Assembly (NCBI GenBank): GCA_030390025.1
Contig: CM059432.1
Coordinates: forward strand, 98,458,001-98,522,000
Direction of reading: 5' to 3'
Source of the DNA: Squalus acanthias
Lineage: Eukaryota
Length of the DNA: 64,000 bases
How positions within the stretch are numbered: position 1 is the first letter of the stretch; every line of letters begins with the position of its first letter. Position numbers and translations under genes: made by a program. The notes beneath the pieces are model-generated. The model worked only from the letters and a program-made list of their open reading frames with translations. It was not told the DNA's origin and did no database searches. This document shows positions 6,341 to 55,771 of this stretch, piece by piece.

Positions 6341-6777
6341 GAATGCTGCCCGCGTGTATGTGGGATGCGCACTGGAGTTATTTGTACAAATATTAAAAGG
6401 TCGTAAATTCAACTGTGGACGGTGCAATTTTATGTGTAAAATGGTTCAAAGGCCTACAAATTCTGTTAACCTCTGAAGAAACTTGAGCAGATTTTTGTTA
6501 GGTGAAAACAACTCCCAAAACATGCAATTGAGGAGCCAAACATGGCAATATGTCAATCAAAAAGTGACGTCAGCCTTCAACAACTCCTGGCTAAAAGTCT
6601 GGAATGAGAAAAACCCAAATGTAAGGCGTGTACGGTAAAATTGCAGCTCAACACATATATATGAGCACGAAAGAAAGTTGTAGCTGGGGAAATGTGAACT
6701 TCTCCCCTTTGGTAGGAAGATTGGAAAAGCAGAATATTTTTTAGAAGGTGAGAGACTGGTAAATGTTGGTATTCAGA

Positions 6778-31826: not shown

Positions 31827-33883
31827 TAGCATTTTCCCTACTATTGGTGTTCGGCTAACCGGTCTGTAGTTCCCTGTTTTCTCTCTCCCTCCTTTTTTAC
31901 ATAGTGGGGTTACATTTGCCACCCTCCAATCTGCAGGAACTGTTCCATAATCTATAGAATTTTGGAAGATGACAACCAATGCATCCACTATTTCCATGGC
32001 TACCTCTTATAGTACTCTGGGATGCAGATTATCAGGCCCTGGGGATTTATCAGCTTTCAGTCCCATTACTTTCTCCAGCGCTATTTTTTTACTAATACTA
32101 ATTTCCTTTAACTCCTCCTTCTCACTAGACCCTTGGTTCCCTAGCATTTCTGGGAAGTTATTTGTGTCCTCTTCCGTGAAGACAGAACCAAAGTATTTGT
32201 TTAATTACTCTGCCATTTCCTTGTTCCCCATTATAAATTCTCCTGTTTCTGACTGTAAGGGACCTACATTTGTCTTCATTAATCTTTTTCTTTTTACATA
32301 CTTGTAGAAGCTTTTACAATCTGCTTTTATGTTCCTTGCAAGTTTACTCTCATACTCTATTTTTCCCCTCTTAATCAATCTCTTGGTCCTTTTTTGCTGA
32401 ACTCTAAACTGCTCCCAATCCTCAGGCTTGCTACTTTTTCTGACAACTTTATAGGACTCCTCTTTGGATCTAATACTACCCTTAATTTATTTTGTTAGCC
32501 ATGGTTGGGCCACTTTTCCTTTTGTGTTTTTGCACCAGAAAGGAATGTATAACTGTTGCAATTCATGCATTCGTTCCTTAAATGTTAGCCATTGCCTATC
32601 CACCGTCATGCCTTTTAATGAAGCTCCCCAATCTATCATAGCCAACTCACTCCTCATAACTTTGTAGTTTCCTTTGTTTAGATTTAGGACCCTAGTTTCA
32701 GATTGGACTTCTTCACTTTCCATCTTAATGAAGAATTCTACATGTTATGGTCACTCTTCATGGAAACATAGAACATAGAAGATAGGAGCAGGAGTAGGCC
32801 ATTCAGCCCCTTGAGCCTGCTCTGCCATTCAATGCGATCATGGCTGATTATCCAAATTCAGTACCCTGTCCCTGCTTTCTCCCCATATCCCTTGATCCCC
32901 TTAGCCTTAAGAAATATATCTAACTCCTTCTTGAATATATTTAATGAATTGGACGCAACTGTCTTCTGTGGTAGAGAATTCCACAGGTTCACCACTCTCT
33001 GGGTGAAGAAATTCCTCCTCATCTCAGTCCTAAATGGCTTACCCCTTATCTTTAGACTGTGACCCCTGGTTCTGGACTGCCCCACCATCGGGAACATCCT
33101 TCTTGCATCTAGTCTGTCTAGTCCTCTTAGAATTTTATAAGTTTCAATGAGATCCCCTCTCATTCTTCTAAACTCTAGCGAATACAAGCCCAATCGACCC
33201 AATCTCTCTTCATACATCATTCCTGCCATCCCAGGCATCAGTCTGGTGAATCTTCGCTGCACTCCCTCCATGGGAAGAACATCCTTCCTGTAGAATTCGC
33301 AATATATCGCGATTTGATTAATAAGGAGAAAACACAAAGTTTCGTTCAAACAGCTTTTATTTCAGCAGAATGCTGGCAAGTTTAGAGTGGACACAAGCAG
33401 CCTGTAAAATGGCCGCCGCACCTCGTGACAGAACATTCTAGACTTTTCAACAGGCAGACAAGATGGCGTTCCATTAAACATTTGTGCAAGATCGATAACG
33501 ATTCAGCACAGTGAAGATAATACACGAGACATTATGGGTTTGCAGTATAAACATAGATACTGGAATCGGTCTCCCAGGTACAAAGGAAAGCCATTGTACC
33601 GAGTAATCAAGGGCCCATCCAAAAGACATTAATATGTAAAATCCCAACGACTCTACGATGAGAGAGCCGTTAGCAGGTAGTTATACAGGACACTTGGAAG
33701 CCCCAAACCCCTCCAGGGAGAACACCGACCGATTTAACAATGGGAAAATGTTAACAGGTACTCAGACATTTACGAGTAGCCCCGAAACCCATTAAGAACG
33801 GAGATCACCCATACAAGACATTTGGGCGCCAAACCCTAAACAAAAGAATGGACATTATAGTTGGGCGGGAAACGGAAGATTTT

Positions 33884-33894
33884 TGCACTATAAT
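33884..33894 (+). promoter_or_regulatory. Putative LTR TATA box
   Basis: GCACTATAAT. The TATAA core is conserved in the two diverged LTRs (minus strand ~1005-1014 and ~17155-17163). Confidence 0.6.
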
Positions 33895-34537
33895 TGCAGG
33901 CTCCAAACCGTCCATTCTCTCTCTTGCTCTTGCATTCGCTCGCTTGCTCCTGTGCTTTTATCCGGTCGATTCGTAACCTCGTGGCTGCTCCTGTGTACTC
34001 GTAGTTGGGCTTCTGCTTGCCTGTTGCCTCTTCTGAAAAGACTGTTGAACTTTCTGATCCGTTCGGATCTACCTCGTGTCGCGTAACGAAGACCTATGTT
34101 GGTAACTGGCAGCGGAACCAAAGGCCCGAGATGAGATGAGATGAGATGAGATGAGATGAGAAGAGAGGAAGACCATATCCATCGCCACGGTCAGTAAATC
34201 CCGACCGCGCCTGTAGGTCGATTAGCCAAGTTTTCCTCGCCAGGAAGATTTCTCTTTTGAACTTTTAACAAAACATATTGCATCGACGATAACGGGACTG
34301 TGTCCAAGGAGATTGGAACGTGAAAACACATCGTATCGATGATATTGACAACTGTGCTCCAAGAGTACCTGTTAAACCAACCAACACAGGTCTTCATCAC
34401 AGCAGACGGTCCAGCCTGCTAGCCGGAGCAGCAGAAGCAAGTAAACAAGTGGGACCAGGAGATCTCCTGACCGACACGTGGGTGCTGCGGTGAAAAACAT
34501 CCGATCAGCTATTCGGAATTTCTCCGAGTTATCACGA

Positions 34538-34546
34538 GTGGTGAGC
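34538..34546 (+). promoter_or_regulatory. Putative major splice donor inside the LTR R region (GT at 34541)
   Basis: GTG|GTGAGC lies in a 20-nt block identical to minus-strand 354-373. G|GTGAGT is at an equivalent position in the solo LTR. Confidence 0.6.
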
Positions 34547-34753
34547 ATGAGTCTCGAGATCCTACGAAGCTAGTTTAGGATAGATATTGATAGGGGAGGG
34601 TTTAAGGATTAAGGATATTTGTAATGTGTGCCCCTATTTACTTTGTGCCGTTCGTTCCTCGTTTCCCTAAGATCGACTATATAACTGTTTGTAAGATTGT
34701 ACTGTCATTAATCTGTGCTTATGACATGTATTTCATACTTTTAAGTATCATGC

Positions 34754-34759
34754 AATAAA
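34754..34759 (+). promoter_or_regulatory. LTR polyadenylation signal (functional copy expected at 42561-42566)
   Basis: AATAAA(G), conserved in all three LTR types. Confidence 0.7.
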
Positions 34760-35014
34760 GATTTTCCATTTCGTACCATTCAAACCAAGTCTACATGAGT
34801 TTTATCTCCATTACTGCTCTCGCATCTAAGTCCAGTGTCTAGAACCGTAAGGGAGAGTGATTCGAACCACTCACAGGTGTGTCTAGTGTTCCCAGACTGG
34901 CTGGAGACCAGAACAGGCAACCAGGCCTAGACCCGCACTGACATACAGGCTGCACAGAGCCGCGTGAATCTCACAGGCTGCGAGACACGCAGGGTCAGGA
35001 ATCCCTTACAGAAA

Positions 35015-36826
35015 ATGGCGACCGCGGCAGGACACTGGCAGCGAGAGGGTAGTGTGTTAGATTTTGGAATGACTGTACGAAATGTTATGCAGGAAAAGAT
35101 AGCGGATTATGTGTTTGGAAAGGTTAATCTAACTAAGAAGTGGATAAGTGAATTGTTAGCGGATAAGAGCCCACTAGAGGCAGCTGAAAGGTGGACAGAT
35201 AGTAAAGAACATAGAAAGACACTTGAGAAAGCAGTCTGGCTTATGTGCTACAAAAGGCAGGTTCAGATTTCAAACCAGACCATTACAGCGCTAGTAGCTC
35301 GAATCAGTCATTTAGAGGGAGAAATGGAGGAGAAGGTTTCTGGAGGGGAGGTGCTCATTAAGAATTTAAATGAGTTACACCAAGAAAGCCAGGAAGTCTC
35401 CAGCCACCTTAAAACAAGGATAGATTATCTCGAGTGCCAGGTCACTGAGGCAAAATTGAATGAGAGCAGGTTAAAGGAAAGATGTAACCGCCAAGCTGCC
35501 CAGATAAGAACTCAAGAAGAGAGCTTAATGGGGGTTAGGTCGGCATATAAGTTGGCCCTTGAGGATAAGTTTCAGGGAGCCGACCATAGCGCCTGCCAAA
35601 GGGAGATAGAGAACCTCAAAAAGGCCGTGAACAATGCGAACGGCATGGTGTGCCTTATCAATCCGTCGGCGCACCAGCCGCTAGTAAATGAGAGATTTAG
35701 AAAATCCCCACCAAGTAAAGCAGAAGAAGTAGTAGCCACTGCGCCCTCCGCGCCACCCAGCTATTCAGAAACCTGGGTTAGGGAGGAAGCAATGGAAGAC
35801 ACAAAAGAGCCCATTGAAAAGGAAGTAGAAAAGGGATCGTTGTATCCAGTAACGGGTATTAAAAGGGGCCCAAGCAGAAACGGTGGGGAAGAACCGGGGG
35901 ATCTCCTCGGACAGCTGGTGTTGCCTCACAGTTCACATCAGCTGAGAGCTATGATAAATCACGTACGGAAGCTGACCGAGATAGACGACCCTTCCGTACA
36001 TTTCAGAGAAGTTGAGCAAGCCGCAGCCATTAACGGCTGCGATGATGGGGAGACAGCAAAAATGCTGCTGTTCTCATTAGACAGCTCGGTCCTTCAGTGT
36101 CTCTCAGGCGAGAGCAAGAGGGGAAACAAGAGTTATGAGGAATTAAAGAATGAGGTCCTAGAAGTGTTGGGGGCGAACGACGGAGGTCCGTTTGCTAGAG
36201 TGGGACAGACAGTGCAGATGGAGGGAGAACCCCCGAAGGTTTTTGCCGACAGGCTGTGGCCAGTATATGAGCGCAGCTGTCTAGGTGCGCCCGAGCGCGA
36301 AGATGTGGAAGGCGCCGCTTTAACTCATTGGCTTAGGTGCATAATAGCCAACAGTTTACCAGCCGTTAGAGAGCAGGCAAAAGCATGGTTTGATCCCAAT
36401 GACCTCAACCTTACGGAAGAGTCGGTCTTGAATCGACTCACGTTAGGTTATCGCAATATAAGGGGTATGGCGACACGTCCCTTTAAGGGAAGAGTACATG
36501 AGGTACGACCCACAGCCCCGTATCAAAGAGAGTGGCATCAGGAGGGTAATCGCGCCCCACAGGCAAGTAATGCTTGTTACGGGTGTGGGAAGACAGGGCA
36601 CTGGCGCAAGCATTGCAGGAACCCTTGGAAGGATTCCAAGGATAAAAATCCCGCGGTCCGAGCCCAGGCGCCTGTCCCGGCTAAGGAAGCCAAGGCACCC
36701 ACCCCTCCCGACGACCTCGAAGCAGTGTTAGGAGCCATGCGCAAGCTGGTCTTGAATGCGCGTGGACAGGTGGCGGTCGCAACCGGCCCCGTAGGTGCCG
36801 CAGGACCGTCTAATAGTACCCAATGA
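35015..36826 (+). CDS. gag: Gag-like polyprotein (603 aa from first ATG): coiled coil, PSAP/PPxY late domain, capsid-like helical region, CCHC zinc knuckle
   Basis: Intact ORF right after the LTR. CYGCGKTGHWRKHC at 36575-36616 and PSAPPSY at 35744-35764. Confidence 0.9.
   Translation: MATAAGHWQREGSVLDFGMTVRNVMQEKIADYVFGKVNLTKKWISELLADKSPLEAAERWTDSKEHRKTLEKAVWLMCYKRQVQISNQTITALVARISHLEGEMEEKVSGGEVLIKNLNELHQESQEVSSHLKTRIDYLECQVTEAKLNESRLKERCNRQAAQIRTQEESLMGVRSAYKLALEDKFQGADHSACQREIENLKKAVNNANGMVCLINPSAHQPLVNERFRKSPPSKAEEVVATAPSAPPSYSETWVREEAMEDTKEPIEKEVEKGSLYPVTGIKRGPSRNGGEEPGDLLGQLVLPHSSHQLRAMINHVRKLTEIDDPSVHFREVEQAAAINGCDDGETAKMLLFSLDSSVLQCLSGESKRGNKSYEELKNEVLEVLGANDGGPFARVGQTVQMEGEPPKVFADRLWPVYERSCLGAPEREDVEGAALTHWLRCIIANSLPAVREQAKAWFDPNDLNLTEESVLNRLTLGYRNIRGMATRPFKGRVHEVRPTAPYQREWHQEGNRAPQASNACYGCGKTGHWRKHCRNPWKDSKDKNPAVRAQAPVPAKEAKAPTPPDDLEAVLGAMRKLVLNARGQVAVATGPVGAAGPSNSTQ
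35016..35033 (+). promoter_or_regulatory. Primer binding site, tRNA-Arg(TCG)
   Basis: TGGCGACCGCGGCAGGAC, 5 nt after the LTR. It is complementary to the 3' 18 nt of vertebrate tRNA-Arg-TCG (...GTCCTGCCGCGGTCGCCA) as recalled. Confidence 0.85.
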
Positions 36827-37987
36827 CTAGAGCCCACGCAGCCTGCCTACCTGTGTCCTTTTAAAAGACACGCACAGGAGGGGGTCTGCGGTGAGGAGGC
36901 CAGGTTAAAAGAGCAGGCCTTGCGGGAGGAGAACGCCCGCTTAATAGGGAAAATAGATGGGCTGGAAGGGCAGCTTAGAGAGCAGGCCCTGCGGGAGGAG
37001 AACGCCCGATCAATGGGAAAGTTAGACGTGCTCAGGCTAGAAGCGCAGCTTAGAGAGATAAAAGCAGCCTACAGGGTAGCCAAAAGCCGGGAGTATGAGG
37101 ATGCAAACCAGTGCAAACTGTACAAGCCAGGTGCGCAAGGGAAAACTACAGGGGTAAATCCCGCCAATGGGAAAGCACAGCCCCAGGTAGGACCACAAGG
37201 CACACAGGCAGGCATAGCAGCTTGCATCAGGGGAAGGGACATCCCGGACGATCATGCAGCGTTTTTCTGGAATTGGGGGTTAGATGAGGAAGAACCCAGG
37301 GTACCCTGGTCAGATGAGGATAGTGCAGATGAGGATAGTGATGACGACGGGTGGTTTCGGAGGAACGGTCCCGTTTACGATATGGAGGGAATGGGGGCTG
37401 TAGGTAGAGATCCACACAGGGTGGACACACAAGCTGCAGGTCCCGAGGACAGGAGGGAGGAGCTAGAGGAGGCAGGGCCAGCCGCTATAGGAGCACAGAG
37501 AGTACCGGTGTGGCTCCCAGAGATGTGGCCGCCCGCTTTGAACGTCCAGTCCTCAGGGGAGGCAGAGATCACGAGTGAAGGGCCGCCTGCTGGGCCGAGC
37601 AGGGCGGAGCCACGAACTGCCAGCCCCGAGGTTAGGGAGGCGGAGTCAGCGGAGGCGGAGCCGGCGACTGTGATGGAACCCCAGGTCATCCCGTTGGAGG
37701 TCTCGGAACCCGGTCCGTCCGTCACGGAACCCCCGCCCATAGCAACTCCCCGTAGGTCAAGTAGAGAACCCCAGCCCAGGAGGATGTGGTCATGTCCCCA
37801 GACTGCCCCAAGGCGTAGACTTCAGGTTAAGATAACCCGGGTACAGACCGGCCACATCGCAGCAGTAACAGGCTGCGGCAGATCAGAGGGAAGGGTCAGC
37901 GCAGCAACAGGCTGCGGCAGATCAGAGGGAAGGGTCAGTGCCCTCCCACCGTCGGGAAGAGCTCGCAGCAGCCTTCTCAGAATTTAA
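36827..37987 (+). CDS. ORF2, in frame with gag (probable read-through extension; coiled coil, acidic and Pro-rich; function unknown)
   Basis: 386 sense codons open immediately after the gag TGA in the same frame. TGA-CTAG context, no early ATG, no pol motifs. Confidence 0.75.
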   Translation, partial: LEPTQPAYLCPFKRHAQEGVCGEEARLKEQALREENARLIGKIDGLEGQLREQALREENARSMGKLDVLRLEAQLREIKAAYRVAKSREYEDANQCKLYKPGAQGKTTGVNPANGKAQPQVGPQGTQAGIAACIRGRDIPDDHAAFFWNWGLDEEEPRVPWSDEDSADEDSDDDGWFRRNGPVYDMEGMGAVGRDPHRVDTQAAGPEDRREELEEAGPAAIGAQRVPVWLPEMWPPALNVQSSGEAEITSEGPPAGPSRAEPRTASPEVREAESAEAEPATVMEPQVIPLEVSEPGPSVTEPPPIATPRRSSREPQPRRMWSCPQTAPRRRLQVKITRVQTGHIAAVTGCGRSEGRVSAATGCGRSEGRVSALPPSGRARSSLLRI

Positions 37988-38299
37988 AGGGGCCGCCCTG
38001 AGAACGGGCGGCACTGTAAAGTTATAGTTCTAAGTTTTAAGTTTATAGTAACAAGGTTAAGTTTTAAGTTTATAGTTCAAGGTTAAGCTTATAGTTTTAA
38101 TAAGGCTAAGTTTGTAGTTTTTTTAACAGAAAACGATAAAATGATGGGAGCTTTAAAGATAGGTTTAGTTGAAGTTTATTCAGCGAACGTTGAAGTTTAC
38201 GTGAGGCGAGGTCAGGGGACCCGCTCACCCTTCACAAAAGCCAGAGACTCTTGCGAGGCTGGCTACCTCATTCTATCTGATCACAGGAACCAAGGAAGG

Positions 38300-40651
38300 A
38301 TGGAACGAATTCTAGTATTGCTCGTGGCAATCGGATGTGGATTGGCCTATCGAGGCCGCACCAAGGATGTCGTGGTGTTTGGATGTTCCGGGGACACGGC
38401 CCCCATCGCGGTGGATGGGACCGGAAGACGGAAGGCAGAGGGGACCAGCACCTATTTCCACAAGGGAAGGTGGCCAGGATGGCTGGGAACGAACTCAACG
38501 GAGTATTCTAGCACCTCGGGGTTTGCCTACCAAGAGACTTCTTTACTGTGCCCCAAAGTAAGGATCATCGCACCCAGGATCAGCGTCACCGTCGGCAAAC
38601 GGATTTGTTTGACTTGTAGTGGGAATGTCCCATTGAGCCGATGGTGGTGGCTACGAAAGCTGAGCAAAACTATGAGGAACTCCTCGGTCGAGTGGGAACG
38701 ACTGGGTAATAATACCCATCGGACAATTACGGGGACAAACGGACAAGTGAAAGTCTGTTGGGACAAATGGTGGGAACCGGATGAGGGAATTTATGTATGT
38801 ATGTGGGGGTCAAAGTACGTTTGCCCCAAAGGCATCTCCATATTTTTTATTAATCAATGGCAGGATAACGGACAGGGGATGAGGTGGGATGCGAGCACCA
38901 GGGGGTGCGGAGCCCCATTCTCCCCGATCCCAGTAAATGCCACTGAACTCATTACGCGCCCACGCAAAGCCCCGCCCACGATTCCGGTGGTTCTAGCTGA
39001 GGAAGAAGGGTGCCCTAAAACTAGTAAGGGACCCGGGAATGGTTTGGTACTGGTCCCCACAGACCAGATACTATTTCAGGGGGTACATTACGTGGTGGCC
39101 TCGGTGATTTTAAATCTCACTGAGGTGCGGTTACCAGAGTGGTGCCCCAAAAAGACGGAACAGTTGTATCAGGTCCTGTTGACCAAGATGTTCAGACAAT
39201 TTTACGAGTTTGATTTTGCAGAAATCGATAAAACAAGTTTGTACACCGCACCACAGGAAGTTTTGGATCAAGTAGGGAGGCAAAGAAGGGGTTTGGTGAA
39301 CGATGCGTTCACTGCTTTTAACACAGGGACATCTGTGGTCAACGCTCTAGACAGTGTGGAGCTGCAGACCCAGATTAATGGTTTAAAGACACAGTTAAAA
39401 GACATTCTAACAGATGAGAATAAAGTGGTAGGGTCAGGTCTACACGAGGACCAAGCCATGACTCTCCATTTAAAGGAAATTATAGCAGAGCTGGAGAAAC
39501 ATGCAAAGACGGTAAATGCCCTGATCAGGGAAGATCGGAATGCATCCGATCAAGCTGCGCAGAACGAGGTGTGCGTGCTTTACGGGGCGTGGTTACTGGG
39601 CGAGGGCCGCAGTAATTTGGAGGATTTAAAACAAGGTTTGGTTCCGTCCTGGATAAGTAACAAACACCTACGGGCGCTCCACCCTTTTCAGAACGCATTA
39701 AGTCCGTGCCAGCTCAGGCTAGCTTCAGAAGCTTACCCAGTCCCCGTGGACTGCGGACGATCAAACCATACTATTATGGGAATAGTATTACGCATGCCGG
39801 TTTTGGGCGACACAGCAAAGCCCGCCCCGGTGTATCGGGTAGAGAACATTGGTGTCATTCAGGGGGGAGCCCACATTCGTTACGCAGCGGTTCCACCTTA
39901 CGTCATCCGCTGGGAGCAAACGATGACAGGTACAGATCTCTCTGGTTGTCGTGGCAGGGGAGCACACATAATACTGTGCCCCCAGCACTTGAATGCCTTT
40001 TTAACACCACAGTGCGGGTTCAGAACGGCTGGCGCCAAGTCCATGAATTGCACCATGGAGGCAATGGCACAGGATCATGTGCCTCCGCAGGTAGCATACA
40101 TCGGGGGTGGAACATATTGTGTTACCACTGCAGCGCAACACTACCAGCATGGAAACCGTAGCCGGTGTCCGGTGAGTGACAGCAGTTTCTGTTTTAAACC
40201 CAGGGCTGAAGTTCAAGTAGCACAACAGCGAATTATCCCAATCCCTGAACCATCCACTGTTCATCTCACAGTAAAAGAGAATTTCACCGACTTGCAGCGA
40301 TTTGTCGCGCATTTTGGATACCTCATTCCCCCTCTCCCTGAACACTTAACCAAACTTCTGAAAGCCGTCGCGGTATCACAGAAACATTTTTATACATTAG
40401 AGCAGAAAACTGTCGAAATAGGAACAGACATTCTGGACATAGTAGTTCCACCGTGGTGGAATCTGTTCACTAATATTGAAGTGCCTTCATGGATCAGAAT
40501 AGCCTCCCACATTTTAGTCGTATGTCAAGTGTTTATTGTAGTGTACCTATTGGTCATACATTGTAAAAGAGACAAACGCCTCACCAAGCATGAAAACACG
40601 GGAGAGTGGCGAGAACGTTACGTGCGCGTGCACGATGAGAGCACCGTGTAA
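38300..40651 (+). CDS. env: Envelope / class I fusion glycoprotein (783 aa; frame open from 38141) with an N-terminal Ig-like domain
   Basis: Signal peptide MERILVLLVAIGCGLA. Furin site RQRR (39278-39289), then a fusion-peptide-like GLVNDAFTAFNTGTSVVNAL and a heptad repeat. Cys-rich region, C-terminal TM (IASHILVVCQVFIVVYLLVI) and several NxS/T sequons. Splice acceptors at ~38129 and ~38286. Confidence 0.9.
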   Translation: MERILVLLVAIGCGLAYRGRTKDVVVFGCSGDTAPIAVDGTGRRKAEGTSTYFHKGRWPGWLGTNSTEYSSTSGFAYQETSLLCPKVRIIAPRISVTVGKRICLTCSGNVPLSRWWWLRKLSKTMRNSSVEWERLGNNTHRTITGTNGQVKVCWDKWWEPDEGIYVCMWGSKYVCPKGISIFFINQWQDNGQGMRWDASTRGCGAPFSPIPVNATELITRPRKAPPTIPVVLAEEEGCPKTSKGPGNGLVLVPTDQILFQGVHYVVASVILNLTEVRLPEWCPKKTEQLYQVLLTKMFRQFYEFDFAEIDKTSLYTAPQEVLDQVGRQRRGLVNDAFTAFNTGTSVVNALDSVELQTQINGLKTQLKDILTDENKVVGSGLHEDQAMTLHLKEIIAELEKHAKTVNALIREDRNASDQAAQNEVCVLYGAWLLGEGRSNLEDLKQGLVPSWISNKHLRALHPFQNALSPCQLRLASEAYPVPVDCGRSNHTIMGIVLRMPVLGDTAKPAPVYRVENIGVIQGGAHIRYAAVPPYVIRWEQTMTGTDLSGCRGRGAHIILCPQHLNAFLTPQCGFRTAGAKSMNCTMEAMAQDHVPPQVAYIGGGTYCVTTAAQHYQHGNRSRCPVSDSSFCFKPRAEVQVAQQRIIPIPEPSTVHLTVKENFTDLQRFVAHFGYLIPPLPEHLTKLLKAVAVSQKHFYTLEQKTVEIGTDILDIVVPPWWNLFTNIEVPSWIRIASHILVVCQVFIVVYLLVIHCKRDKRLTKHENTGEWRERYVRVHDESTV

Positions 40652-40658
40652 TCAGAAA

Positions 40659-40853
40659 ATGGCGTCACTCCCGCTCGCCGCGTGCACCGCGGAAGTTTGT
40701 ACTCATATAAGATTTTCAGAGATTGTAAATACGTTGGGAACTCGACATGTTTTAAGAGTTGGGGTTTTGATTATTTTGGTGATGGTGTTGATTGTTTGGT
40801 TTTGGGTTTTGTTTTTTCTCCTTTCCCTGAATAAAAGACAAATATACAGGTGA
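40659..40853 (+). CDS. Putative small membrane protein (64 aa)
   Basis: AAAATGG Kozak context 7 nt after the env stop. One long hydrophobic stretch VGVLIILVMVLIVWFWVLFFLLSL followed by NKR. Confidence 0.35.
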   Translation: MASLPLAACTAEVCTHIRFSEIVNTLGTRHVLRVGVLIILVMVLIVWFWVLFFLLSLNKRQIYR

Positions 40854-41083
40854 TACGAGAGGTATCGGCCTGGTTACGCCGGGAAGGAAAACAAGTGGTG
40901 TAAGTTTAAGGGCAAATAATGCCTACGGTGATATAAAATGTAATTTTCTTGGGAAATAAGGACGACACAGAGACCCTAGCTAAGTTAAAAATTATGGGAT
41001 TAATTTACTGGATTCGGAGAGAAATCGAGATAATATTGCTCATCACTGTGATTTTTGATACGATAAGCGGAGTTATTCGCATC

Positions 41084-41095
41084 AACAGGAGGGAC
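41084..41095 (+). promoter_or_regulatory. Polypurine tract (short)
   Basis: AACAGGAGGGAC immediately before the 3' LTR TGT. Confidence 0.65.
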
Positions 41096-42817
41096 TGTAG
41101 AATTCGCAATATATCGCGATTTGATTAATAAGGAGAAAACACAAAGTTTCGTTCAAACAGCTTTTATTTCAGCAGAATGCTGGCAAGTTTAGAGTGGACA
41201 CAAGCAGCCTGTAAAATGGCCGCCGCACCTCGTGACAGAACATTCTAGGCTTTTCAACAGGCAGACAAGATGGCGTTCCATTAAACATTTGTGCAAGATC
41301 GATAACGATTCAGCACAGTGAAGATAATACACGAGACATTATGGGTTTGCAGTATAAACATAGATACTGGAATCGGTCTCCCAGGTACAAAGGAAAGCCA
41401 TTGTACCGAGTAATCAAGGGCCCATCCAAAAGACATTAATATGTAAAATCCCAACGACTCTACGATGAGAGAGCCGTTAGCAGGTAGTTATACAGGACAC
41501 TTGGAAGCCCCAAACCCCTCCAGGGAGAACACCGACCGATTTAACAATGGGAAAATGTTAACAGGTACTCAGACATTTACGAGTAGCCCCGAAACCCATT
41601 AAGAACGGAGATCACCCATACAAGACATTTGGGCGCCAAACCCTAAACAAAAGAATGGACATTATAGTTGGGCGGGAAACGGAAGATTTTTGCACTATAA
41701 TTGCAGGCTCCAAACCGTCCATTCTCTCTCTTGCTCTTGCATTCGCTCGCTTGCTCCTGTGCTTTTATCCGGTCGATTCGTAACCTCGTGGCTGCTCCTG
41801 TGTACTCGTAGTTGGGCTTCTGCTTGCCTGTTGCCTCTTCTGAAAAGACTGTTGAACTTTCTGATCCGTTCGGATCTACCTCGTGTCGCGTAACGAAGAC
41901 CTATGTTGGTAACTGGCAGCGGAACCAAAGGCCCGAGATGAGATGAGATGAGATGAGATGAGATGAGAAGAGAGGAAGACCATATCCATCGCCACGGTCA
42001 GTAAATCCCGACCGCGCCTGTAGGTCGATTAGCCAAGTTTTCCTCGCCAGGAAGATTTCTCTTTTGAACTTTTAACAAAACATATTGCATCGACGATAAC
42101 GGGACTGTGTCCAAGGAGATTGGAACGTGAAAACACATCGTATCGATGATATTGACAACTGTGCTCCAAGAGTACCTGTTAAACCAACCAACACAGGTCT
42201 TCATCACAGCAGACGGTCCAGCCTGCTAGCCGGAGCAGCAGAAGCAAGTAAACAAGTGGGACCAGGAGATCTCCTGACCGACACGTGGGTGCTGCGGTGA
42301 AAAACATCCGATCAGCTATTCGGAATTTCTCCGAGTTATCACGAGTGGTGAGCATGAGTCTCGAGATCCTACGAAGCTAGTTTAGGATAGATATTGATAG
42401 GGGAGGGTTTAAGGATTAAGGATATTTGTAATGTGTGCCCCTATTTACTTTGTGCCGTTCGTTCCTCGTTTCCCTAAGATCGACTATATAACTGTTTGTA
42501 AGATTGTACTGTCATTAATCTGTGCTTATGACATGTATTTCATACTTTTAAGTATCATGCAATAAAGATTTTCCATTTCGTACCATTCAAACCAAGTCTA
42601 CATGAGTTTTATCTCCATTACTGCTCTCGCATCTAAGTCCAGTGTCTAGAACCGTAAGGGAGAGTGATTCGAACCACTCACAGGTGTGTCTAGTGTTCCC
42701 AGACTGGCTGGAGACCAGAACAGGCAACCAGGCCTAGACCCGCACTGACATACAGGCTGCACAGAGCCGCGTGAATCTCACAGGCTGCGAGACACGCAGG
42801 GTCAGGAATCCCTTACA
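41096..42817 (+). repeat. 3' LTR (1722 bp)
   Basis: Same sequence as the 5' LTR at offset 7807. The only difference seen by eye is A33442/G41249. Confidence 0.97.
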
Positions 42818-44311
42818 TTCCTCAGATAAGGCGACCAAAACTGCACACAATACTCAAGGTGTGGTCTCACCAAGGCCCTGTACAACTGCAGCAAGACATC
42901 CTTGCTCCTGTACTCGAATCCTCTCACTATGAAGGCCAACATACCATTTGCCTTCTTAACCGCCTGCTGCACCTGCATGCTTACCTTCAGCGACTGGTGC
43001 ACAAGGTCACCTAGGTCTCGTTGCACTTCCCCTTTTCCCAATCTATTACCGTTCAGATAATAATCTGCCTTCCTGTTTTTGCCACCAAAGTGGATAACCT
43101 CACATTTATCCACATTATACTGCACCTGCCATGCATCTGCCCAACCACCCAACCTGTCCAAATCATACTGGAGTTTCTCTGCATCCTCCTCACAGCACAC
43201 ACGCCCACCCAGCTTTGTGTCGTCTGCAAACTTGGAGATATTACATGTCGTTCCCTCGTCGAGATCATTAATATATATTGTGAATAATTGGAGTCCTAGC
43301 ACCGATCCCAGTGGTACCCCAATACTCACTGCCTGCCACTCGGAAAAAGACCCTAAAGGACCCCGCACAACAAGATTATTAATTGACCCCTTCTCATTGC
43401 ACAATACCCAATCTAGGATAGCCTGTTCTCTAGTTGGCTCCTCAATGTACTGGTCTAAAAAACCATCTCGTACACACTCCAGGAATTCATCCTCCACAGT
43501 ATTATTGCTAATCTTGTTTGGCCAGTCTATATGTAGATTAAAGTCACCCATGATTACTGTAGTACCCTTGTTACATGCATCTCTAATTTTCAGTTTGATG
43601 CCATCCCCTACATCACCACTACTGTTTGGAGGCCTATAGACAACTCCCACGAAAGTTTTCTGCCCCTTGCTGCTTCTTAGCTCCACCCAGACTGATTCTA
43701 CATCTTGATTTTCTGAGCCAATATCCTTTCTCACTATTGCTCTGATTTCATCCTTTACTAACAACGCCACCCCACCTCCTTTTCCTTTTCGCCTGTCCTT
43801 CCTAAATATCAAATATCATTGGATATTCAGCTCCCAGCCTTGTTCACCCTGCAGCCATGTCTCTGTACTCGCAGTTATATCACATCCATTTACACCTATT
43901 TGCGCTGTTAATTGATCTACCTTATTACGAATGCTTCGTGCATTCAGATACAGTGGGGGAAAAATTAAGTCGCGCCCCATTTGGGGCGCAAATATCATCT
44001 GGACGCAAAAATTAGCGCCTGGCGCTAATTATCGCCACTGACTGGAAACTTCACTTTTACCGCCCCGGGAGGTGAGTGGAGCGCTAAATCAGGCGCTGCA
44101 CACCTGTCTTAAGGCGCAAAGGCCGAGCAGTGAGGCGCTAACTCAGCGCGTGAGCGCAGCGCAGGTGCTGCCAGTTAGCGAGGGAACACAGACACACTGG
44201 CTCCGGCCAGTTCTTAAAGGGGGGGGGCAACTTGCTCCCCAGCCACACCCTGCTCATTGCAGCCTTGAATCTCGGCCTGGAGAGACCTGTGAATCCATTT
44301 TGCAGCCAAGG

Positions 44312-46238
44312 ATGGAGAGGGTGAGAGAACGAGCTCAGCGCTTCACCGAGCGGGCCTTCGATGCTCTGGTTGGCACGGTGGAGCGCAGAAGATCGAGACA
44401 CTTCCCTGAGAGTGGCAGGAGGCCTTTGCCACGCGAGTACAGAAGAGTGTGGAGGGAGGTGGCTCAGAGCGTCTCCTCCAGGAGCATGGTGCCCAGGACC
44501 CATGTTCAATGCCGCAAAAAGTTCAACGACCTCACTCGGGTCATCAGGGTGAGTGGCTTTTTCTCAATACCTCTCCATCCCTCCATCTCAACCTCACTCT
44601 ATGGCCAGAGGGTCTTAAAACCCCAATGCACAACACTCATCCAACACCTATGGCCCTTTCATGAAACACACACACACATTCCACACTTTGCATACAGTAA
44701 GGGCTATTCACCTATGGGAGGCACATCAGGCAAGACCATGGCTGTATACAGTAAGGGCTATTCACCTATGGGAGGCACATCAGGCAAGACCATGGCTGTA
44801 TACAGTAAGGGCTATTCACCTATGGGAGGCACATCAGGCAAGACCATGGCTGTATACAGTAAGGGCTATTCACCTATGGGAGGCACATCAGGCAAGACCA
44901 TGGCTGTATATTTACTCAGATGCTGCCCTTTTTCTTGCAGGCCAAGCTGGCGCATAATAGGAGACAGCAGCAACGGACAGGTGGAGGGCGGCCTCAGCTG
45001 CAACCCCTCAGCGATCTTGAGGAGCGCGTCCACAGGATTGTGGCAAGCCGGGTGATCGGTCCTGTCGCCACTGGAGACGCCGACCCCGTTCTGGACAGCA
45101 ATGGTAAGGTCATCACCTTTTGTCCTCTGTCCTTCCACTTGTCCCTCACAACACCAGCCTTTGACACTTTCAATCCAACTTGCTAACTCGCTGCACTTAT
45201 TCCTCCCTTACTGCCACCCTGTCCTCACGCTAAAGCCACTCTTGTACCTCCCTGCTTTCAGATGGTGATTCACCAGCTGAGGAGACGGGCCCTGAAGCTG
45301 CCAGTGGGAGTGAAGCTGCAGCCGAGGAGGAAGAGGAAGCCGGAGCATCAGTGCCACCCTCTCCCGAGGAAGCCCATGCCCACACTGGGAACACGCCTTC
45401 CCTGGAGGGGAGCAGGGGGGAAGGGTCTGATGAGGGTGAAGCTCCAGGACCCAGCGGGCTGCAGCAACGCCATGGGGGTAGGGAAGAACGGGGGCCTTCT
45501 CCTCAGAGGGAGAGTATGCCAGCGACTCCTACTGCAATGGACGCAGAGGAGGAGCGGCTGATCGCAGAAATGAACACCCAGGCGGTGGGCATGCACACTG
45601 AGCTCATGGGTGCAGTGGGAAGGGTGCCCGAATGCATTGAGTCACTGGCAAGGAGTGTGGAGCACTTCGCTGTAGCACAGGCGGATGCCACACTAACGCT
45701 TAGTGCTGCAATTCAGTCACTGACTGCCGTGATCCCATCTCTGACTGCTCTCATGCAGACTCAGATTGAGGCCACGCGAGCACTGACTGCTGCCAACCTC
45801 GATGGTTCGTTCACATGTCCCCGGGGCTCTCACCGCGCCGCAGCAGGCCAGCAATCTGTGCTCCAGCAGATTGCTCCGGATGCTGAAGTGCTGCCCCGTG
45901 GGAGTGCCAGTGTGTCGGGCGAGCAGGGAGTTGCTGTCCTCTCTCACGATGACAGCATTGCTGCTGCCAACACTGTCACTTCTCCACTGCACTTGCCACC
46001 GCCTGTAGGACAGACTGCTGCCGCCCATGCAGAGTTGGTGCAGTCTGCAGCCGGGCCCTCCAGGCCCAGAACTGGTCGAGGCCGTCCTTCAGGGGCATCT
46101 GCAGTGTCAGGGTCTGACAATCAGCAGCCTTCCACCAGCCTTGCTGCAGCCACTGAGGTCCCAATACGGAGGAGCAGTAGGGTTAGAAGGGGGGAAGTGC
46201 GCAAGGGAAGGAGATCACCCTCGAAGGGCAAAAAGTAG
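44312..46238 (+). CDS. Harbinger Myb/SANT-like DNA-binding protein, 3 exons (44312-44548, 44941-45103, 45262-46238), 458 aa
   Basis: RERAQRFTERAFDALV...WREVA...QCRKKFNDLTR. GT-AG introns give a continuous 1377-nt frame. Confidence 0.85.
44693..44908. repeat. 54-bp minisatellite x4 in Myb intron 1
   Basis: Unit TACAGTAAGGGCTATTCACCTATGGGAGGCACATCAGGCAAGACCATGGCTGTA. Confidence 0.95.
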
Positions 46239-46514
46239 GAGGTGTGACAAAATGCTGGTCATTTTTTTATTAAAGGCCGAGGTTCGTGGTCCAACTTTTG
46301 TCTAGTGTTTTGGACATTATCTCCAGGTTGTGAGAACCAGTTATGTTAATGACTGTTTTTTTGTGTTTATTTCTATGAGTTTGTCATGAGGAAATGACAC
46401 ACACAGAGTTTGTAAAATAAATAAGTTTTTGTATTCAAAATATACATGTTTGGTGTTTGGAATCATTGGTGCTTTGGCCGGCTTAGGGGTTGCGTGCTGG
46501 GTTCATTGATGTTG

Positions 46515-47769
46515 TTAGCAATGGCAGAAGCCATTTCCACAGCAGGGGCCATAGAAGCGGCTTGCTATCAGCCGTTGACGGACGGCCCTTGCAGTTTCAC
46601 CATTGTGGGCCGCCCTCCCGCCTTGGTGCTGCTGATGATCATCCTCCTCATCCTCTTCCTCCTCCTCCTCTGGTGGTGCTCCAAGGCCTGGTGGCATTTG
46701 CTGGGTCCTGACGATTGCCATGTTATGCAACATGCAGCACACAACTATGAAGTTGGATACTCGCTCAGGCGAGTACTGCAGGGCTCCTCCAGAATGGTCG
46801 AGACAGCGGAACCGTTGCTTCAGCACGCCGATTGTGCGCTCAATGATGTTCCTGGTAGCTTGATGGCTCTCGTTGTACCGCAGCTCAGCAGGGGTGTTGG
46901 GCGTACGGAGCGGTGTCATCAGCCAGGTGCTCAATGGATACCCCTTGTCCCCGAGAAGCCAACCAACTGGCTGATGCGGTGCCTCGAAAAGTTCTGCCAC
47001 AGTAGTCTGGCGCAGGATGAAAGCATCGTGGCAGCTGCCAGGATAGTGGGCATTGACAGCGAGTATCAGCTGTCTGTGGTCACAGACCAACTGAACATTC
47101 AAGGAATGGAACCCCTTTCTGTTCCGGAAATCCTCGGCATTCTCATGGAGCACGCAAAGCCACATGCGTGCAGTCAATGGCGCCCTGCACCATGGGGAAG
47201 CCCGATATCCTCGCAAAGCCCAGAGCGCGGTCACGCTGCTTGTCTAGGGTCATGGGGAAAGAGATGAACTCTCGTCTCCTTTTAAAGAGGGCATTTGTGA
47301 CCTGCTGGATGCAGCAATGCACCGCGAACTGGGAGATATTGGCGAGGTCCCCAGCAGCAGCTTGAAATGAGCCAGTAGCATAGAAGTTGAGAGCCACTGT
47401 GACCTTCACTGCCACCGACAGAGACGTCCTGGACCTCAGTTGAGGCTGCAGATCTGGCAGCAGCAGGTGGCAGAGCTCAGTGATCACCTCCTTGCTGAAT
47501 CGCAGCCTTCGCAAACACAGCTCCTCAGACATATGAATGTAGGAGAGCTGTTCACGATATACCCTGGGAGGGTAAGCTCTCCTGTACATACGCCTGTTGG
47601 CCCTCCTCCGTCTGGCCATCATTGCCACTCTCTCTCTGCGTCTCTGTGTCCTCCGATTCAGCTGGAGCAGGACGACGCCCCCAATCAGTGCAGCCTCCAT
47701 AGTCTCTTTGCAAGCAAAGTTATGAAGGACAGCAACCAAAGTACCAGCGAAGTTAGGATCAGTAGGCAA
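46515..47769 (-). pseudogene. Harbinger (HARBI1-like) DDE transposase with one frameshift near 47145
   Basis: [15 protein letters not shown] and [18 protein letters not shown] motifs are split over two frames. 2-nt deletion relative to copy 2. Confidence 0.9.
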
Positions 47770-50127
47770 AACTACCTCACAAAGCGTTGACTCAATGCAG
47801 AAGTCTCTCTTTCTCTCTCTCCGAATCTCTCTCTCTCTCTCAGAACGAGTGGTGCAAAAATGTCAACCACAGAAAAAGACAGGAAGAGGCCCCCTTTAAA
47901 TAGCGCCCCCCCCAGCCCCACAGTGATTGATAGCGTTCCAGTTTTCCGGTCGTTGGATGCGCCAGGCGGTAAGGCAGGGGGCACCACTCAATTTCCGCTC
48001 CGGGGCGCCACAAGGGCGTTGCACCATGGAATGACGTCACAATCTGCGCGCGCAGGTGGTCGCAGCGGTAAAGTTTAGCGACGCCGCACAATGTCTAGTT
48101 AAGTTCCCGAGCGGCGCAAACATCGCTGCGCCCGGGTGCTAGCGGCTTTGCGCCCCATTAGCGCCCTCTTAAGGCGCTAACGGGAGGCGCAACCAACTGA
48201 ATTTTTCCCCCAGTGCCTTTAGATTTGTCTTTTTAACATTTTTAGACATCTTAACATTTTTTTGTACTATGGCGCTATTTGTCTTTTTACCATTTATTCT
48301 TACCCGGACCCTATTTGTTGGTGCATTCCTTTGTTTGTACATTCTGTCCCTTCCTGACACAATCTGGTTATCCTTACCCCAATCACTTTCCTGTACTGCT
48401 TCCTTGTCTTTTCTCTTTAGCATTCTAGATTTCTCTCCACCGCGACCCTCCCCCCACACCCTTATTTAGTTTAAAGCCCTATCTACCTCCCTAGTTATTC
48501 GATTCGCTAGAACTCTGGTCCTAGCATGGTTCAGGTGTAGTCCGTCCCAACGGAACAGCTCTCTCTTTCCCCAGTACTGGTGCCAGTGCCCCATGAATCG
48601 AAATCCACTTCTCTCACACCAATCTTTGAGCCACGCATTCATCTCCCTGATCCTATTGACCCTATGCCAATTTGCTCGTGGCTCCGGTAATAATCCAGAG
48701 ATTGTGACCTTTGAAGTTCTGTTTTTTTAATTTAGTCCCAATCTGCTCAAACTCTCTCAGCAGAACCTCCTTCTTTGTACCTCCTATGTCATTGGTACCT
48801 ACGTGAACCACAACAACTGGATTCTCCCCCTCCCACTCCAAGTTCTTCTCCAGCCCGGAGGAGATGCCCTTTACCCTGGCACTGGGTAGGCAACGTAGCC
48901 TTCGGGACTCACGCTCCTGGCTGCAGAGAACAGTATCTATCCCCCTAACTATACTGTGACCTACTACAACCACCTTCCTTTTTACTCCCCCCACTTGAAC
49001 GGCTTCCTGTACCACGGTGCTGTGGTCAGTTTGCTCATCCTCCCCGCAGTCCCCGCACTTGTCCACAAGGGTTGCAAGAACCTCAAATCTATTGGACAAG
49101 TGCAGGGACTGAGGCTCCTGCAATACTACCTCCTGGATCCCCATACCTGCCTCACTTGCAGTCACACCCTCCTGTCCCTGACCACGTGTCAATTCTAAAG
49201 TAATTAATTTAAGAGGTGTGACTGCCTCCTGGAGCAAAAGGTTCAGGTAACTTTCTCCCTCCCTGATGTCTCGCAATGTCTGCAGCTCCTCAACTCGGAG
49301 CCGAAGTTCCTCGAGCCGCAGACACTTACCGCAGGTGTAGTCACCCTGGACAAAAATGTCCACAAGCTCCCACATGTTGTAGTAGCAACACATCTTGTGT
49401 TCTCCCATTATTTTATTTATTTAATTAATTAGTTTAGTGTTAATCAAATTATTTACCTAGTTTAGTTTATTAAATTAATTAAATTAAGTTTAGTTTTTAA
49501 AATTTAGTTATATGCTGTATGTTAACTTAAAACTTAGCCCACAGTCACTACCAATTACTTACCTGCCTTACCTGTGATGTCACACTGCCATTTTCTCTTG
49601 TTATTGCAGGTCTGCTGCTGCTTTTATCCCCGCTCTCGGGCCTCGGTCGGCTCCCGTTCAGGTCCGCCACTGCTCTGTGGGAGAACTTAGGAAAAGCAAG
49701 CACCTCCTTCCCCCACTTCACCAAACTCCCACACTTACCAAACTTCCACTTGTTCACTCTGTGCTCACTGCACTCAGTGCTGGCTGCACTCACAGGCCCC
49801 TGTGTTTATACTTTTGTAACTTAGATGAGTCAACACTGCTCTGCTACTGTTTCAGGAACCAGTTTAATCTAGTTAGCTAATTAACTACAGCAGCTCTTCA
49901 GCAGGAGAGCTTGCTTGTTTGTCTCTGCTTAAGCCTGAAGAAACTTAAAAATTTAAAGTTCAAAATTTTAACTTAAACAGTTGATCTTACTTAAGAGCTA
50001 CTAGCAATTTACACTAGATTTTAAAAGAGATTAACCCTTAAAACTCCCACACTTACCAAACTCCCAGTTGTTCACTCTGTGCTCACTGCACTCAGTGCCT
50101 GTTCCCTTGTTGGTTCTAAGATATATT

Positions 50128-52148: not shown

Positions 52149-53600
52149 TTTGTTCCAGGAGGCAGTCACACACTTTAGGATTAGTAGTACTTTAGAGTTC
52201 ATCAGTGGTCAGGAACAGGAGGGTGTGACTGCGAGTCAGGAAGGTATGGGGACCCAGGATGCAGTGAAGGAGGAGCCTCAGCCCTGGACCTTGTCCAACA
52301 GGTACGAGGTACTTTCTACCTGTATGGATGAGGAAAAGGACTGCATGGAGGATGGGCAAACTTACCACGGCACTGTGGTACAGGGGGCCATCCAAGTGGG
52401 GGGAGAAGGAAGGAATGTGGTAATAGTAGGGGGCAGTATATCAGGGGGATAGATACTGTTCTTTGCAGCCACGAAAGAGAGTCCCAAAGGCTGTGTTGCC
52501 TGCCCGGTGCCAGGGTTAAGGATATCTCCTCGTGGCTGGAGAAGAACTTGGAGTGGGAGGGGGAGGATCCATTTGCTGTGGTCCATGTAGGAACCAATGA
52601 CATAGGTAGAATTAAGAATGAGGTTCAGCTGAGGGAGTTTGAGGAGCAAGGGTCTAAATTAATAAGCAGAACCACAAGGGTAATAATCTCTGGTTTACTA
52701 CCTGAGCCACGTGCAAATTGGCATTGGGTCAAGCAGATCAGAGAGTTAAATGCGTGGCTCAAAGTGTGGTGTGGGAAAATGGGGTTTCAATTCATGGGGC
52801 ATGGGCACCAGTACTGGGGAAAGAGGGAGCTGTTCCATCAGGGCGGGCTCCACTTAATCCGGGCTGGGACAGTGTCCTGGCGAATCGAATAACTAGGGCT
52901 GTAGATAGGCCTTTAAACTAAAAAAAGGGGGTAAGGGGTCAGGTGAGGGGGAATTTAGAAATCTAAAGAGAAAGGTCGAGGCAATAGAGCAGTGTAGAAA
53001 TTTGGGTAAAAATAAGCAGAGTGTGACAGGAAGGGATAGAGAGTTTAATAGTAGCAGTGCAGCAGAGAATAAGGTCAAAGCAGGGAATAATGGTAAAACA
53101 TTTAAATTAAAGGCTCTTTATCTGAATGCATGAAGCATTCGTAACAAGATAAACAAACTAATTGCACAAATAGAGATAAATGTGTTTGATCTAATAGCCA
53201 TTACAGAGACCTGGTTGCAAGGTGGCCAAGGTTGGGAACTAAGGGGTAGAAATTAGGTCGCGCCCCATTTGGGGCACAAATATCGTCCGGACGCAAATAT
53301 TAGCGCCTGGCGCTAATTATCGGCACTGACAGGAAACTTCACTTTTACCGCCCCGGGAGGTGAGTGGAGCGCTAAAGCAGGCGCTGCACACCTGTCTTAA
53401 GGCGCAAAGGCCAAGGAGTGAGGCGCTAACTTAGCGCGCGAGCGCAGCACAGCTGCTGCCAGTTAGCGAGGGAACACAGACACACTGGCGCCGGACACTT
53501 CTTAAAGCGGGGGGGGCCACTTGCTCCCCAGCCACACCCTGCTCATTGCAGCCTTGAATCTCAGCCTGCAGAGACCTGTGAATCCATTTTGCTGCCAAGC

Positions 53601-55477: not shown

Positions 55478-55771
55478 GAGGTGTGCCAAAATGCTGGTCA
55501 TTTTTTTATTAAAGGCCGAGGTTCATGGTCCAACTTTTGTTTAGTGTTTTGGACATTATCTCCAGGTTGTGAGAACCAGTTATGTTATTGACTGTTTTTT
55601 TGTGTTTATTTCTATGAGTTTGTCATGAGGAATTGACACACACAGAGTTTGTAAAATAAATAAGTTTCTGTATTCAAAATATACATGGCTGGTGGTTGGA
55701 ATTATTGGTGCCTTGGCCGGCTTAGGGGTTGCGTGCTGGGTTGATTAGTGTTTGTAGCAATGGCAGGGGCC

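Follow-up and report, generated by a model that had tools for sequence, protein, structure and literature searches.

The stretch of DNA analysed here (the window) comprises 64,000 nt of the Squalus acanthias genome (assembly GCA_030390025.1, contig CM059432.1, positions 98,458,001–98,522,000) and contains, at positions 33289–42817, an endogenous retrovirus (ERV) with open gag and env genes and no recognizable pol enzymes (Table 1). Our results indicate that this provirus most probably arose, by replacement of pol, from a lokiretrovirus-like ERV family of the same genome that is very young and has a high copy number; it is non-autonomous and would be complemented by this family in trans. Its termini were found as described in the original prediction, which was made from the sequence of the window and proposed a very recent insertion: the only mismatch between the two 1,722-bp long terminal repeats (LTRs) is at 33442, the target-site duplication (TSD) is perfect on both sides, and a candidate polypurine tract (PPT) abuts the 3′ LTR. 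The primer-binding site (PBS), also predicted, is complementary at 18/18 positions to the 3′ terminus of a tRNA-Arg(TCG) from the same genome with CCA added (pattern search and ARAGORN). One reverse transcriptase (RT) frame of a long interspersed nuclear element (LINE) reads through both flanks, across the insertion point. Substitution rates are slower in sharks than in mammals. At the mammalian rate of 2.2e-9 per site per year, as used in PMC7947760, the LTR divergence would correspond to ca. 0.13 million years, a value that depends on a single site.

The interior contains three stop-free frames of 631, 386 and 854 codons, in agreement with the three uninterrupted frames predicted, which correspond to gag, a second open reading frame (ORF2) and env. 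The gag product is 50 % identical to a protein from Rhinoraja, and a homolog (P0004) begins with a matching N-terminus. The reported lack of protease (PR), RT, RNase H and integrase (IN) held in both motif and domain searches. The YxDD motif was not present in any of the six interior frames, and matches to D[TS]G in a six-frame search were confined to non-coding frames or to the leader. Likewise, the Pfam families RVP, RVT_1, RNase H and rve gave no match with E ≤ 1 in six frames, namely the three main ORFs plus another three long frames. Together with the junction map presented below, these searches support the predicted non-autonomous status of the provirus, the enzymes for its own replication being missing.

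Table 1. Features of the provirus in window coordinates (pN/pS, ratio of non-synonymous to synonymous polymorphism; Ig, immunoglobulin; TM, transmembrane segment)
Feature	Position	Strand	Remarks
5′ TSD, 4 bp (TTCC)	33285..33288	+	Inside a LINE (RT/endonuclease) remnant, which is on the minus strand
5′ LTR, 1,722 bp, TG...CA	33289..35010	+	TATAA at 33889, AATAAA at 34754; U3/R/U5 borders putative
gag, 603 aa from first ATG	35015..36826	+	Long N-terminal coiled coil, helical capsid-like region, one CCHC knuckle; UGA then CUAG
PBS	35016..35033	+	18/18 complementary to tRNA-Arg(TCG); 5 nt past the LTR; overlaps the probable gag ATG (35015)
ORF2 part 1, first ca. 11 codons of parent pol	36827..36858	+	In frame past the gag stop; by comparison with pol-bearing copy L028
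ORF2 part 2, foreign in-frame filler	36859..37104	+	246 nt, 82 aa, coiled-coil-like, internal 69-nt repeat
ORF2 part 3, post-integrase C-terminal tail of parent Pol	37105..37987	+	Ca. 293 aa, acidic/proline-rich and then basic
Non-coding spacer	37988..38140	+	T-rich tract ending in AG at ca. 38130, a candidate env splice acceptor; indel-rich across copies
env, 836 aa from ATG 38141	38141..40651	+	783 aa from ATG 38300; pN/pS 0.12
env parts		+	Hydrophobic signal segment (38306–38353), Ig-like beta domain, RQRR (39278–39289), heptad repeats, F-like beta-rich domains, TM (ca. 40499–40558)
Candidate PPT	41084..41095	+	Short purine-rich tract, 10/12 purines, abutting the 3′ LTR
3′ LTR, 1,722 bp	41096..42817	+	One mismatch to the 5′ LTR
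3′ TSD, 4 bp (TTCC)	42818..42821	+	

In-frame replacement of pol

Four genomic matches to the interior start only at window position ca. 37105 and have an in-frame integrase upstream. In a stretch of one such copy, L028, which has a frameshift in pol, gag ends in the same UGA-CUAG stop and is followed by PR, RT, tether, RNase H, integrase and an SH3-like domain. The window matches L028 at 97 % up to 36858 and again at 97 % from 37105; between these two points, 3,619 nt of L028 pol, encoding PR, RT, tether, RNase H and IN, are replaced in frame by 246 foreign nt. This alignment indicates that ca. 3.6 kb of pol were swapped for a 246-nt foreign piece (the filler), while the LTRs, PBS, gag, its stop codon, the Pol tail and env were kept. 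The pol slot had been described as occupied by an unrelated ORF and not by a deletion scar, and this description has to be corrected: ORF2 is an in-frame replacement scar, with ca. 304 of its 386 codons being pol sequence from the parent family and the foreign part limited to 36859–37104. The Pol tail in ORF2 is also encoded by the pol-bearing copies, hereafter helpers.

The 5′ junction is common to all sampled pol-less copies. The foreign piece is longer in five of the seven aligned pol-less copies than in the window copy and, given this variation in length, its 3′ side was remade by later recombination with helpers. ORF2 is open (at least 350 codons) in 139 of the best 150 copies out of 2,577 candidates, with 15 different in-frame lengths.

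The gag stop context UGA-CUAG, a known readthrough signal (PMC4132726), is conserved in 17/18 pol-less copies. Judging from the in-frame arrangement, readthrough presumably must yield Gag-Pol in the helpers, and would yield a Gag-ORF2 product in the pol-less element. No hairpin is claimed 3′ of the gag stop (z −1.85, with 8/200 shuffles equally stable).

No donor of the filler was found among the best 40 of 1,343 DNA candidates and the best 150 of 2,577 protein candidates, both sets being saturated by pol-less copies. The first 17 nt of the filler had four matches outside their usual context, corresponding to three junction variants and to one copy of the family inserted into another, with a 4-bp TSD, and an Atlas search with the filler returned nothing at 0.9 or above. 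The resemblance of the filler to the N-terminal coiled coil of Gag is suggestive. An origin from the N-terminus of a related gag is a lead only (BLASTP E 1.2; hhalign probability 2.6 %, E 0.018): the similarity to the element's own Gag (shuffle p 0.004) was not replicated with the Rhinoraja Gag (p 0.41), and the reversed sequence scored 48 vs 59.

The autonomous Pol of the helpers (L023–L030; window 37105–37987) ends in a post-integrase tail of ca. 290 aa with a fast-evolving middle (dN/dS about 1), conserved C-terminal motifs and hydrophobic tetrapeptides resembling protease sites at its borders. This tail had no Pfam match and may be an accessory protein released from Pol.

Abundance of the pol-less form and identity of the helper

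When the 6,085-nt interior was compared with the 3.7-Gb assembly, 27 matches were listed, with the best 26 of 6,756 candidates scored. Seventeen of these, counting the window, extend over the entire pol-less interior at 97–100 %, and the LTR pairs of these 17 loci differ by 0–4 mismatches in ca. 1.3 kb. Copies were counted genome-wide with 20-mers, allowing up to one mismatch; a reversed-pattern control gave 0 matches. The 20-mer spanning the pol-less 5′ junction had 1,087 matches, scattered along both large contigs listed, compared to 1,096 for an RT-motif 20-mer and 1,883 for an env-motif 20-mer. The same structure was thus sought and found elsewhere in the genome, and the pol-less element is a lineage of ca. 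1,100 young copies, not a one-off. Some of the matches to a fourth 20-mer, from the start of pol, recur at 2.9-kb or 8-kb spacing, which hints at further deleted classes or at tandem arrays.

These data also bear on the possibility that the structure arose by a one-off deletion, an assembly artefact or segmental duplication instead of retrotransposition. Tandem copies do occur on the small contigs C264 and C792, and TSDs were examined at two insertion sites, the window and one nested copy. Against this, both of these insertions have clean TSDs, the 1,087 junction matches are dispersed and the LTR pairs of 17 loci are near-identical. Additionally, contigs from 4/4 public runs, belonging to four studies, bridge a pol-less junction (the 5′ junction in three runs and the 3′ junction in one). 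As runs X1 and X7 are only putatively RNA, these contigs are evidence of presence only, and one run could be the source sample. The one-off and misassembly variants are already refuted, and we find the remainder of this explanation hardly credible.

The pol-less form is not restricted to the youngest copies. An older provirus of pol-less length (L033:1–4401, L034, on G000:C2462), with a 4-bp TSD, is 86–90 % identical to the window and is nested inside another pol-less copy, exactly at the pol/filler junction. It shares the filler of the window copy and its ORF2 is open, so that the pol-less form is older than the latest burst. A further LTR (L035) is 82 % identical.

We then examined the pol-bearing copies, whose existence in the genome had been suggested as a check of the original prediction. 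Their Pfam domains are RVP, RVT_1, RT_RNaseH, RNase_H, H2C2 and rve, with RT_RNaseH and RNase_H both above the cut-off, and 39 of the 52 scored pol matches (99–100 % identical) have frames of at least 1,480 codons. The helper gag is 97 % identical to that of the window and the helper 3′ LTRs (L023–L026) are ca. 98 % identical to the window LTR. The same genome thus contains pol frames, enzyme domains and, as judged from the LTR, matching cis elements for a competent helper, in keeping with the prediction that PR, RT and IN are borrowed. Linkage between motifs was analysed on contig 1, the only contig with exact matches fully listed in all four motif searches, excluding one-mismatch variants. 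The env motif was at the expected distance in 46/50 RT-motif copies and in 31/34 pol-start copies, so that helpers carry their own env; the env region was open in four of the six helpers sampled. From these comparisons, the helper is the element's own full-length parent family, with ca. 1,100 RT-bearing copies, and the system is not obligately bipartite. The predicted satellite system with a distinct partner was accordingly not upheld, the partner being a parent that has a 97 % identical gag and its own env.

An obligately bipartite virus would require that pol-bearing partners lack a usable gag or env and rely on the pol-less element, the two being segments of one virus. The two classes occur at ca. 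1:1, the matches to the env motif (1,883) are fewer than the sum of both classes (2,183), and both helpers sampled from a second subfamily have a broken env, by a frameshift in L029 and by a ca. 1.15-kb deletion in L030, all of which would fit this explanation. Yet the env motif accompanies most RT-motif and pol-start copies of contig 1, most sampled helper env regions are open, and the env-deletion junction of L030 occurs once in the genome, for which reason an env-less helper subfamily was rejected. The explanation is largely refuted and very improbable.

Selection, recombination and propagation of the element

Selection was examined in 23 pol-less loci, from which the tandem near-duplicates L004, L016, L019 and L020 and the partial L021 were dropped, as was L027 (the other half of the L022 locus) in some tests, leaving 17–18 loci. 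The comparison of substitutions among copies, proposed with the original prediction, gave purifying signatures for both genes: pN/pS was 0.27 for gag (58 non-synonymous and 60 synonymous changes; p 6e-12) and 0.12 for env (50 and 129; p 1e-43) among 17 pol-less copies. The value for env was 0.15 once sites with both alleles in the six sampled helpers were removed, and 0.16 for variants private to a six-copy pol-less clade (clade B). With respect to the older 86–90 % identical copy, gag and 5′ env had dN/dS values of 0.30 and 0.35, compared to 0.31 in the filler (p 0.07) and 0.85 in the tail. Among 18 copies there were no indels in gag or env and 35 distinct indels, 29 of them frame-breaking, in 597 nt of homopolymer-rich non-coding spacer and 3′ untranslated region. 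The frames were open in 16 (gag), 15 (ORF2) and 17 (env) of the 17 full-length loci.

As the junction map shows, the element originated by a recombination that replaced PR, RT, tether, RNase H and IN with a foreign in-frame piece. We propose that the pol-less RNA is packaged in particles containing helper Gag-Pol, primed by tRNA-Arg, and reverse-transcribed and integrated by helper enzymes in trans; co-packaging would allow recombination with helpers. The resulting product multiplied to ca. 1,100 copies beside ca. 1,100 RT-bearing copies. Lastly, and with less certainty, the element might still express its own Gag, a spliced Env and, by readthrough, Gag-ORF2, all of them entering mixed particles; this would account for the intact gag and env. 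Assembly together with helper Gag-Pol, the necessary source of protease, RT and integrase, is very likely. The use and selection of the element's own Gag and Env appears about equally balanced against pure parasitism, and a function for the Gag-ORF2 product is doubtful. A stronger version of this last step is a cooperative, semi-bipartite population, in which half of the genomes are enzyme-less and selected to supply Gag and F-type Env, with a Gag-coiled-coil-tail protein having its own job in assembly, RNA selection or Gag:Pol tuning. We regard it as rather unlikely; if true, the division of labour would be long-lived and precede the latest burst, and the lineage would be the first of lokiretrovirus-like type to be described from cartilaginous fish.

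Several observations weigh against the proposed scheme. The pol-start 20-mer had 2,032 matches, about twice the RT count; none of the public data sets listed as containing the element is on record as RNA; and the exact env motif was found downstream in 31/52 exact pol-less junctions on contig 1, a figure that is a floor. Amino-acid constraint in the ORF2 tail was weak or absent (pN/pS 0.69, p 0.06, 17 copies; dN/dS of 0.85 and 1.10 in pairwise comparisons), and the pN/pS of the filler was not significant (0.52, p 0.07) and reached 2.0 in clade B. In trees of the tail and of env, pol-less and helper copies are interleaved, with no fixed differences, and both alleles of 28/73 shared env polymorphisms were already present in six helpers. 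Also, the loci were selected for similarity to an intact query, a procedure biased towards intact copies, and the helpers sampled are six out of ca. 1,100 for env and part of one for gag. Because of this small sample, selection within the pol-less lineage is not separated from recombination, and the purifying signal may be partly or wholly imported from helpers.

A pure defective-interfering parasite is the most serious competitor for the last step, and is itself a sub-case of the first ones: the pol-less RNA would ride helper particles, its own proteins being irrelevant, with gag and env appearing conserved because they are young and constantly overwritten by recombination with helpers, and the open ORF2 kept for RNA-level reasons, such as avoiding decay. 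The interleaved trees, the low constraint in tail and filler, and the existence of two 3′ junction types, which indicates repeated recombination with helpers, favour this explanation; moreover, comparable systems have been described as parasites of parasites (PMC10924933). These patterns do indicate sequence exchange between pol-less and helper copies. Nevertheless, the cattle ERVK D-type elements described in that work all lack intact ORFs, whereas here gag, ORF2 and env are open in nearly all full-length loci, env variants private to clade B are under apparent constraint, and ORF2 stays open across its 15 in-frame lengths. On balance, we give pure interference somewhat less than an even chance.

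The purifying signatures on gag and env could also be expected if copies were kept for host use, for instance like the zebrafish Bik Gag or as an Env receptor blocker, and there is a precedent for host use of a non-autonomous lokiretroviral Gag (bioRxiv 2024.03.25.586437). The near-identical LTRs and the ca. 1,100 dispersed copies argue instead for constraint during replication and not at fixed loci, and nothing here points to a host benefit. Such a co-option, which need not exclude the trans-complemented derivative that we favour, is improbable.

Env fold, lokiretrovirus affinity and other features

Hydropathy and sequence analysis of Env identified a signal peptide, the basic cleavage site RQRR, a coiled coil and a TM; the cleavage motif in lokiretrovirus Env is RXKR (PMC7947760). 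The Env sequence had no convincing match in the PDB, none of the 37 members of its alignment matched PF00523, and the Ig-like domain near the N-terminus gave weak matches only. However, an AlphaFold2 model built from these 37 sequences (predicted local distance difference test, pLDDT, 62; predicted template modelling score, pTM, 0.42) was similar to the fusion (F) protein of human parainfluenza virus 3 (Foldseek E 2e-11). With VIA-align it matched the F proteins of Newcastle disease virus (Z 11.6, root-mean-square deviation, rmsd, 18.6, 356 residues aligned) and human metapneumovirus (Z 9.7, rmsd 5.3, 280 aligned), and foamy virus Env (Z 8.3). The predicted fold, though not the sequence, thus confirms the original assignment of Env as F-type, with a fold like that of paramyxovirus and pneumovirus F. 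The 53 in-frame codons ahead of the Env signal segment (38141–38299) are open in 17/17 full-length loci and are possibly a long leader peptide.

The pol-bearing parent has the lokiretrovirus layout LTR-gag-pol-env, with PR, RT, tether, RNase H and IN, and the window copy has it without pol. In a FastTree phylogeny with 30 database matches, the helper fell in a clade with dual RNase H (Shimodaira–Hasegawa support 100), apart from Ty3/Gypsy-type sequences; this tree is compatible with Loki as well as with other retroviral lineages. With regard to the CGIN1/NYNRIN affinity of lokiretrovirus integrases, the closest named match to the integrase was a 'protein NYNRIN-like' from Heptranchias perlo, 83 % identical. 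For the MLV/Ty3-like capsid fold of lokiretrovirus Gag, the model of the Gag was too poor (pLDDT 41.5) and had no Foldseek match; feature matches in Atlas were to retrotransposon Gag families (best 0.92). The lokiretrovirus-like affinity originally suggested is maintained because the dual RNase H of the parent and the F-like Env fit the description in PMC7947760; the element behaves like a lokiretrovirus, and membership of that lineage is likely, if unproven.

Named homologs come from Rhinoraja, Pristiophorus and Heptranchias. Env fragments of the lineage are fused into predicted genes of Pristiophorus japonicus (P0002 and P0003; Niban 1-like and ZFP2-like), which are probably annotation chimeras. 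The list of lokiretrovirus hosts in the main text of PMC7947760 omits cartilaginous fishes, and the family may thus extend the range of the lineage. We found no account of this pol-less family or of lokiretroviruses from cartilaginous fish in the literature, with most subscription papers, Repbase and the supplement of PMC7947760 being outside the search.

Internal replacement with trans-complementation is a known concept. The Athila elements of Arabidopsis include non-autonomous gag+env families without pol whose ORFs are under purifying selection (PMC2410132), and they resemble the dogfish element in having LTRs, intact gag and env and no pol, in being mobilized in trans, in their link to autonomous families by recombination, and in raising the same question of parasite vs contributor. 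They differ in being plant Ty3/Gypsy elements with helpers from other families, and the parts of that work available describe no retained readthrough ORF; the dogfish element has a vertebrate host, an F-type env and, as its helper, a 97–99 % identical parent. The architecture had been predicted to be unusual, which holds with respect to the vertebrate cases compared here but not in general, given Athila. Cattle ERVK[2-1-LTR] types C and D, mouse MusD/ETn and koala KoRV-A/recKoRV share a swapped central segment with retained flanks, trans-complementation and recombination between types (PMC10924933). As opposed to the cattle D type, which has no intact ORFs, gag, env and the fused ORF2 are mostly open here, and the foreign insert is short and keeps the frame.

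Lokiretroviruses share gag-pol-env, a tether plus RNase H, an F-like Env and a coiled-coil Gag N-terminus (PMC7947760), and zebrafish BHIKHARI is a pol-less, complemented lokiretroviral family (bioRxiv 2024.03.25.586437); the shark element differs from these in that env is kept and the helper is abundant. The SERV-K/MER11 pro-pol deletion class and CfERV-Fc1(a) have likewise spread shared internal lesions by complementation, but, as described in PMC11379458 and PMC6407205, they amount to tens of copies, mostly env-deleted or otherwise broken, with no in-frame replacement. What is new is the combination of a vertebrate element, a retained F-type Env, a readthrough frame kept through an in-frame filler, two classes of roughly a thousand copies each at a ratio of ca. 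1:1, and the host group. The ca. 1,100 pol-less and ca. 1,100 RT-bearing near-identical copies constitute a large natural data set for asking if coding non-autonomous copies are parasites or contributors, as has been asked for Athila and cattle ERVK, and the family looks recently active, with an F-type fusogen. ERV screens based on RT miss the whole pol-less class.

The distance between TATAA (33889) and AATAAA (34754) in the LTR implies an unusually long R, of roughly 850 nt, and a (GAGAT)n microsatellite near 34130 varies between copies. The CpG observed/expected ratio is 0.6–1.2 in the element and 0.27–0.47 in the flanks. The probable gag ATG, in a strong context, overlaps the beginning of the PBS and corresponds to the residue at which the Rhinoraja homolog begins; a primer tRNA on the PBS would cover this start codon, making a switch between translation and packaging possible. 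The genes for this primer, tRNA-Arg(TCG), are highly amplified in the genome, with 431 matches genome-wide and large tandem arrays of a 1,623-bp unit in G000:C26, at ca. 39.0–42.2 Mb (L032). Finally, the window contains two related Harbinger-like DNA transposons (ca. 43950–48210 and 53240–57450), with DDE_Tnp_4 and Myb/SANT domains, and a third stretch related to them near 5500–8100.

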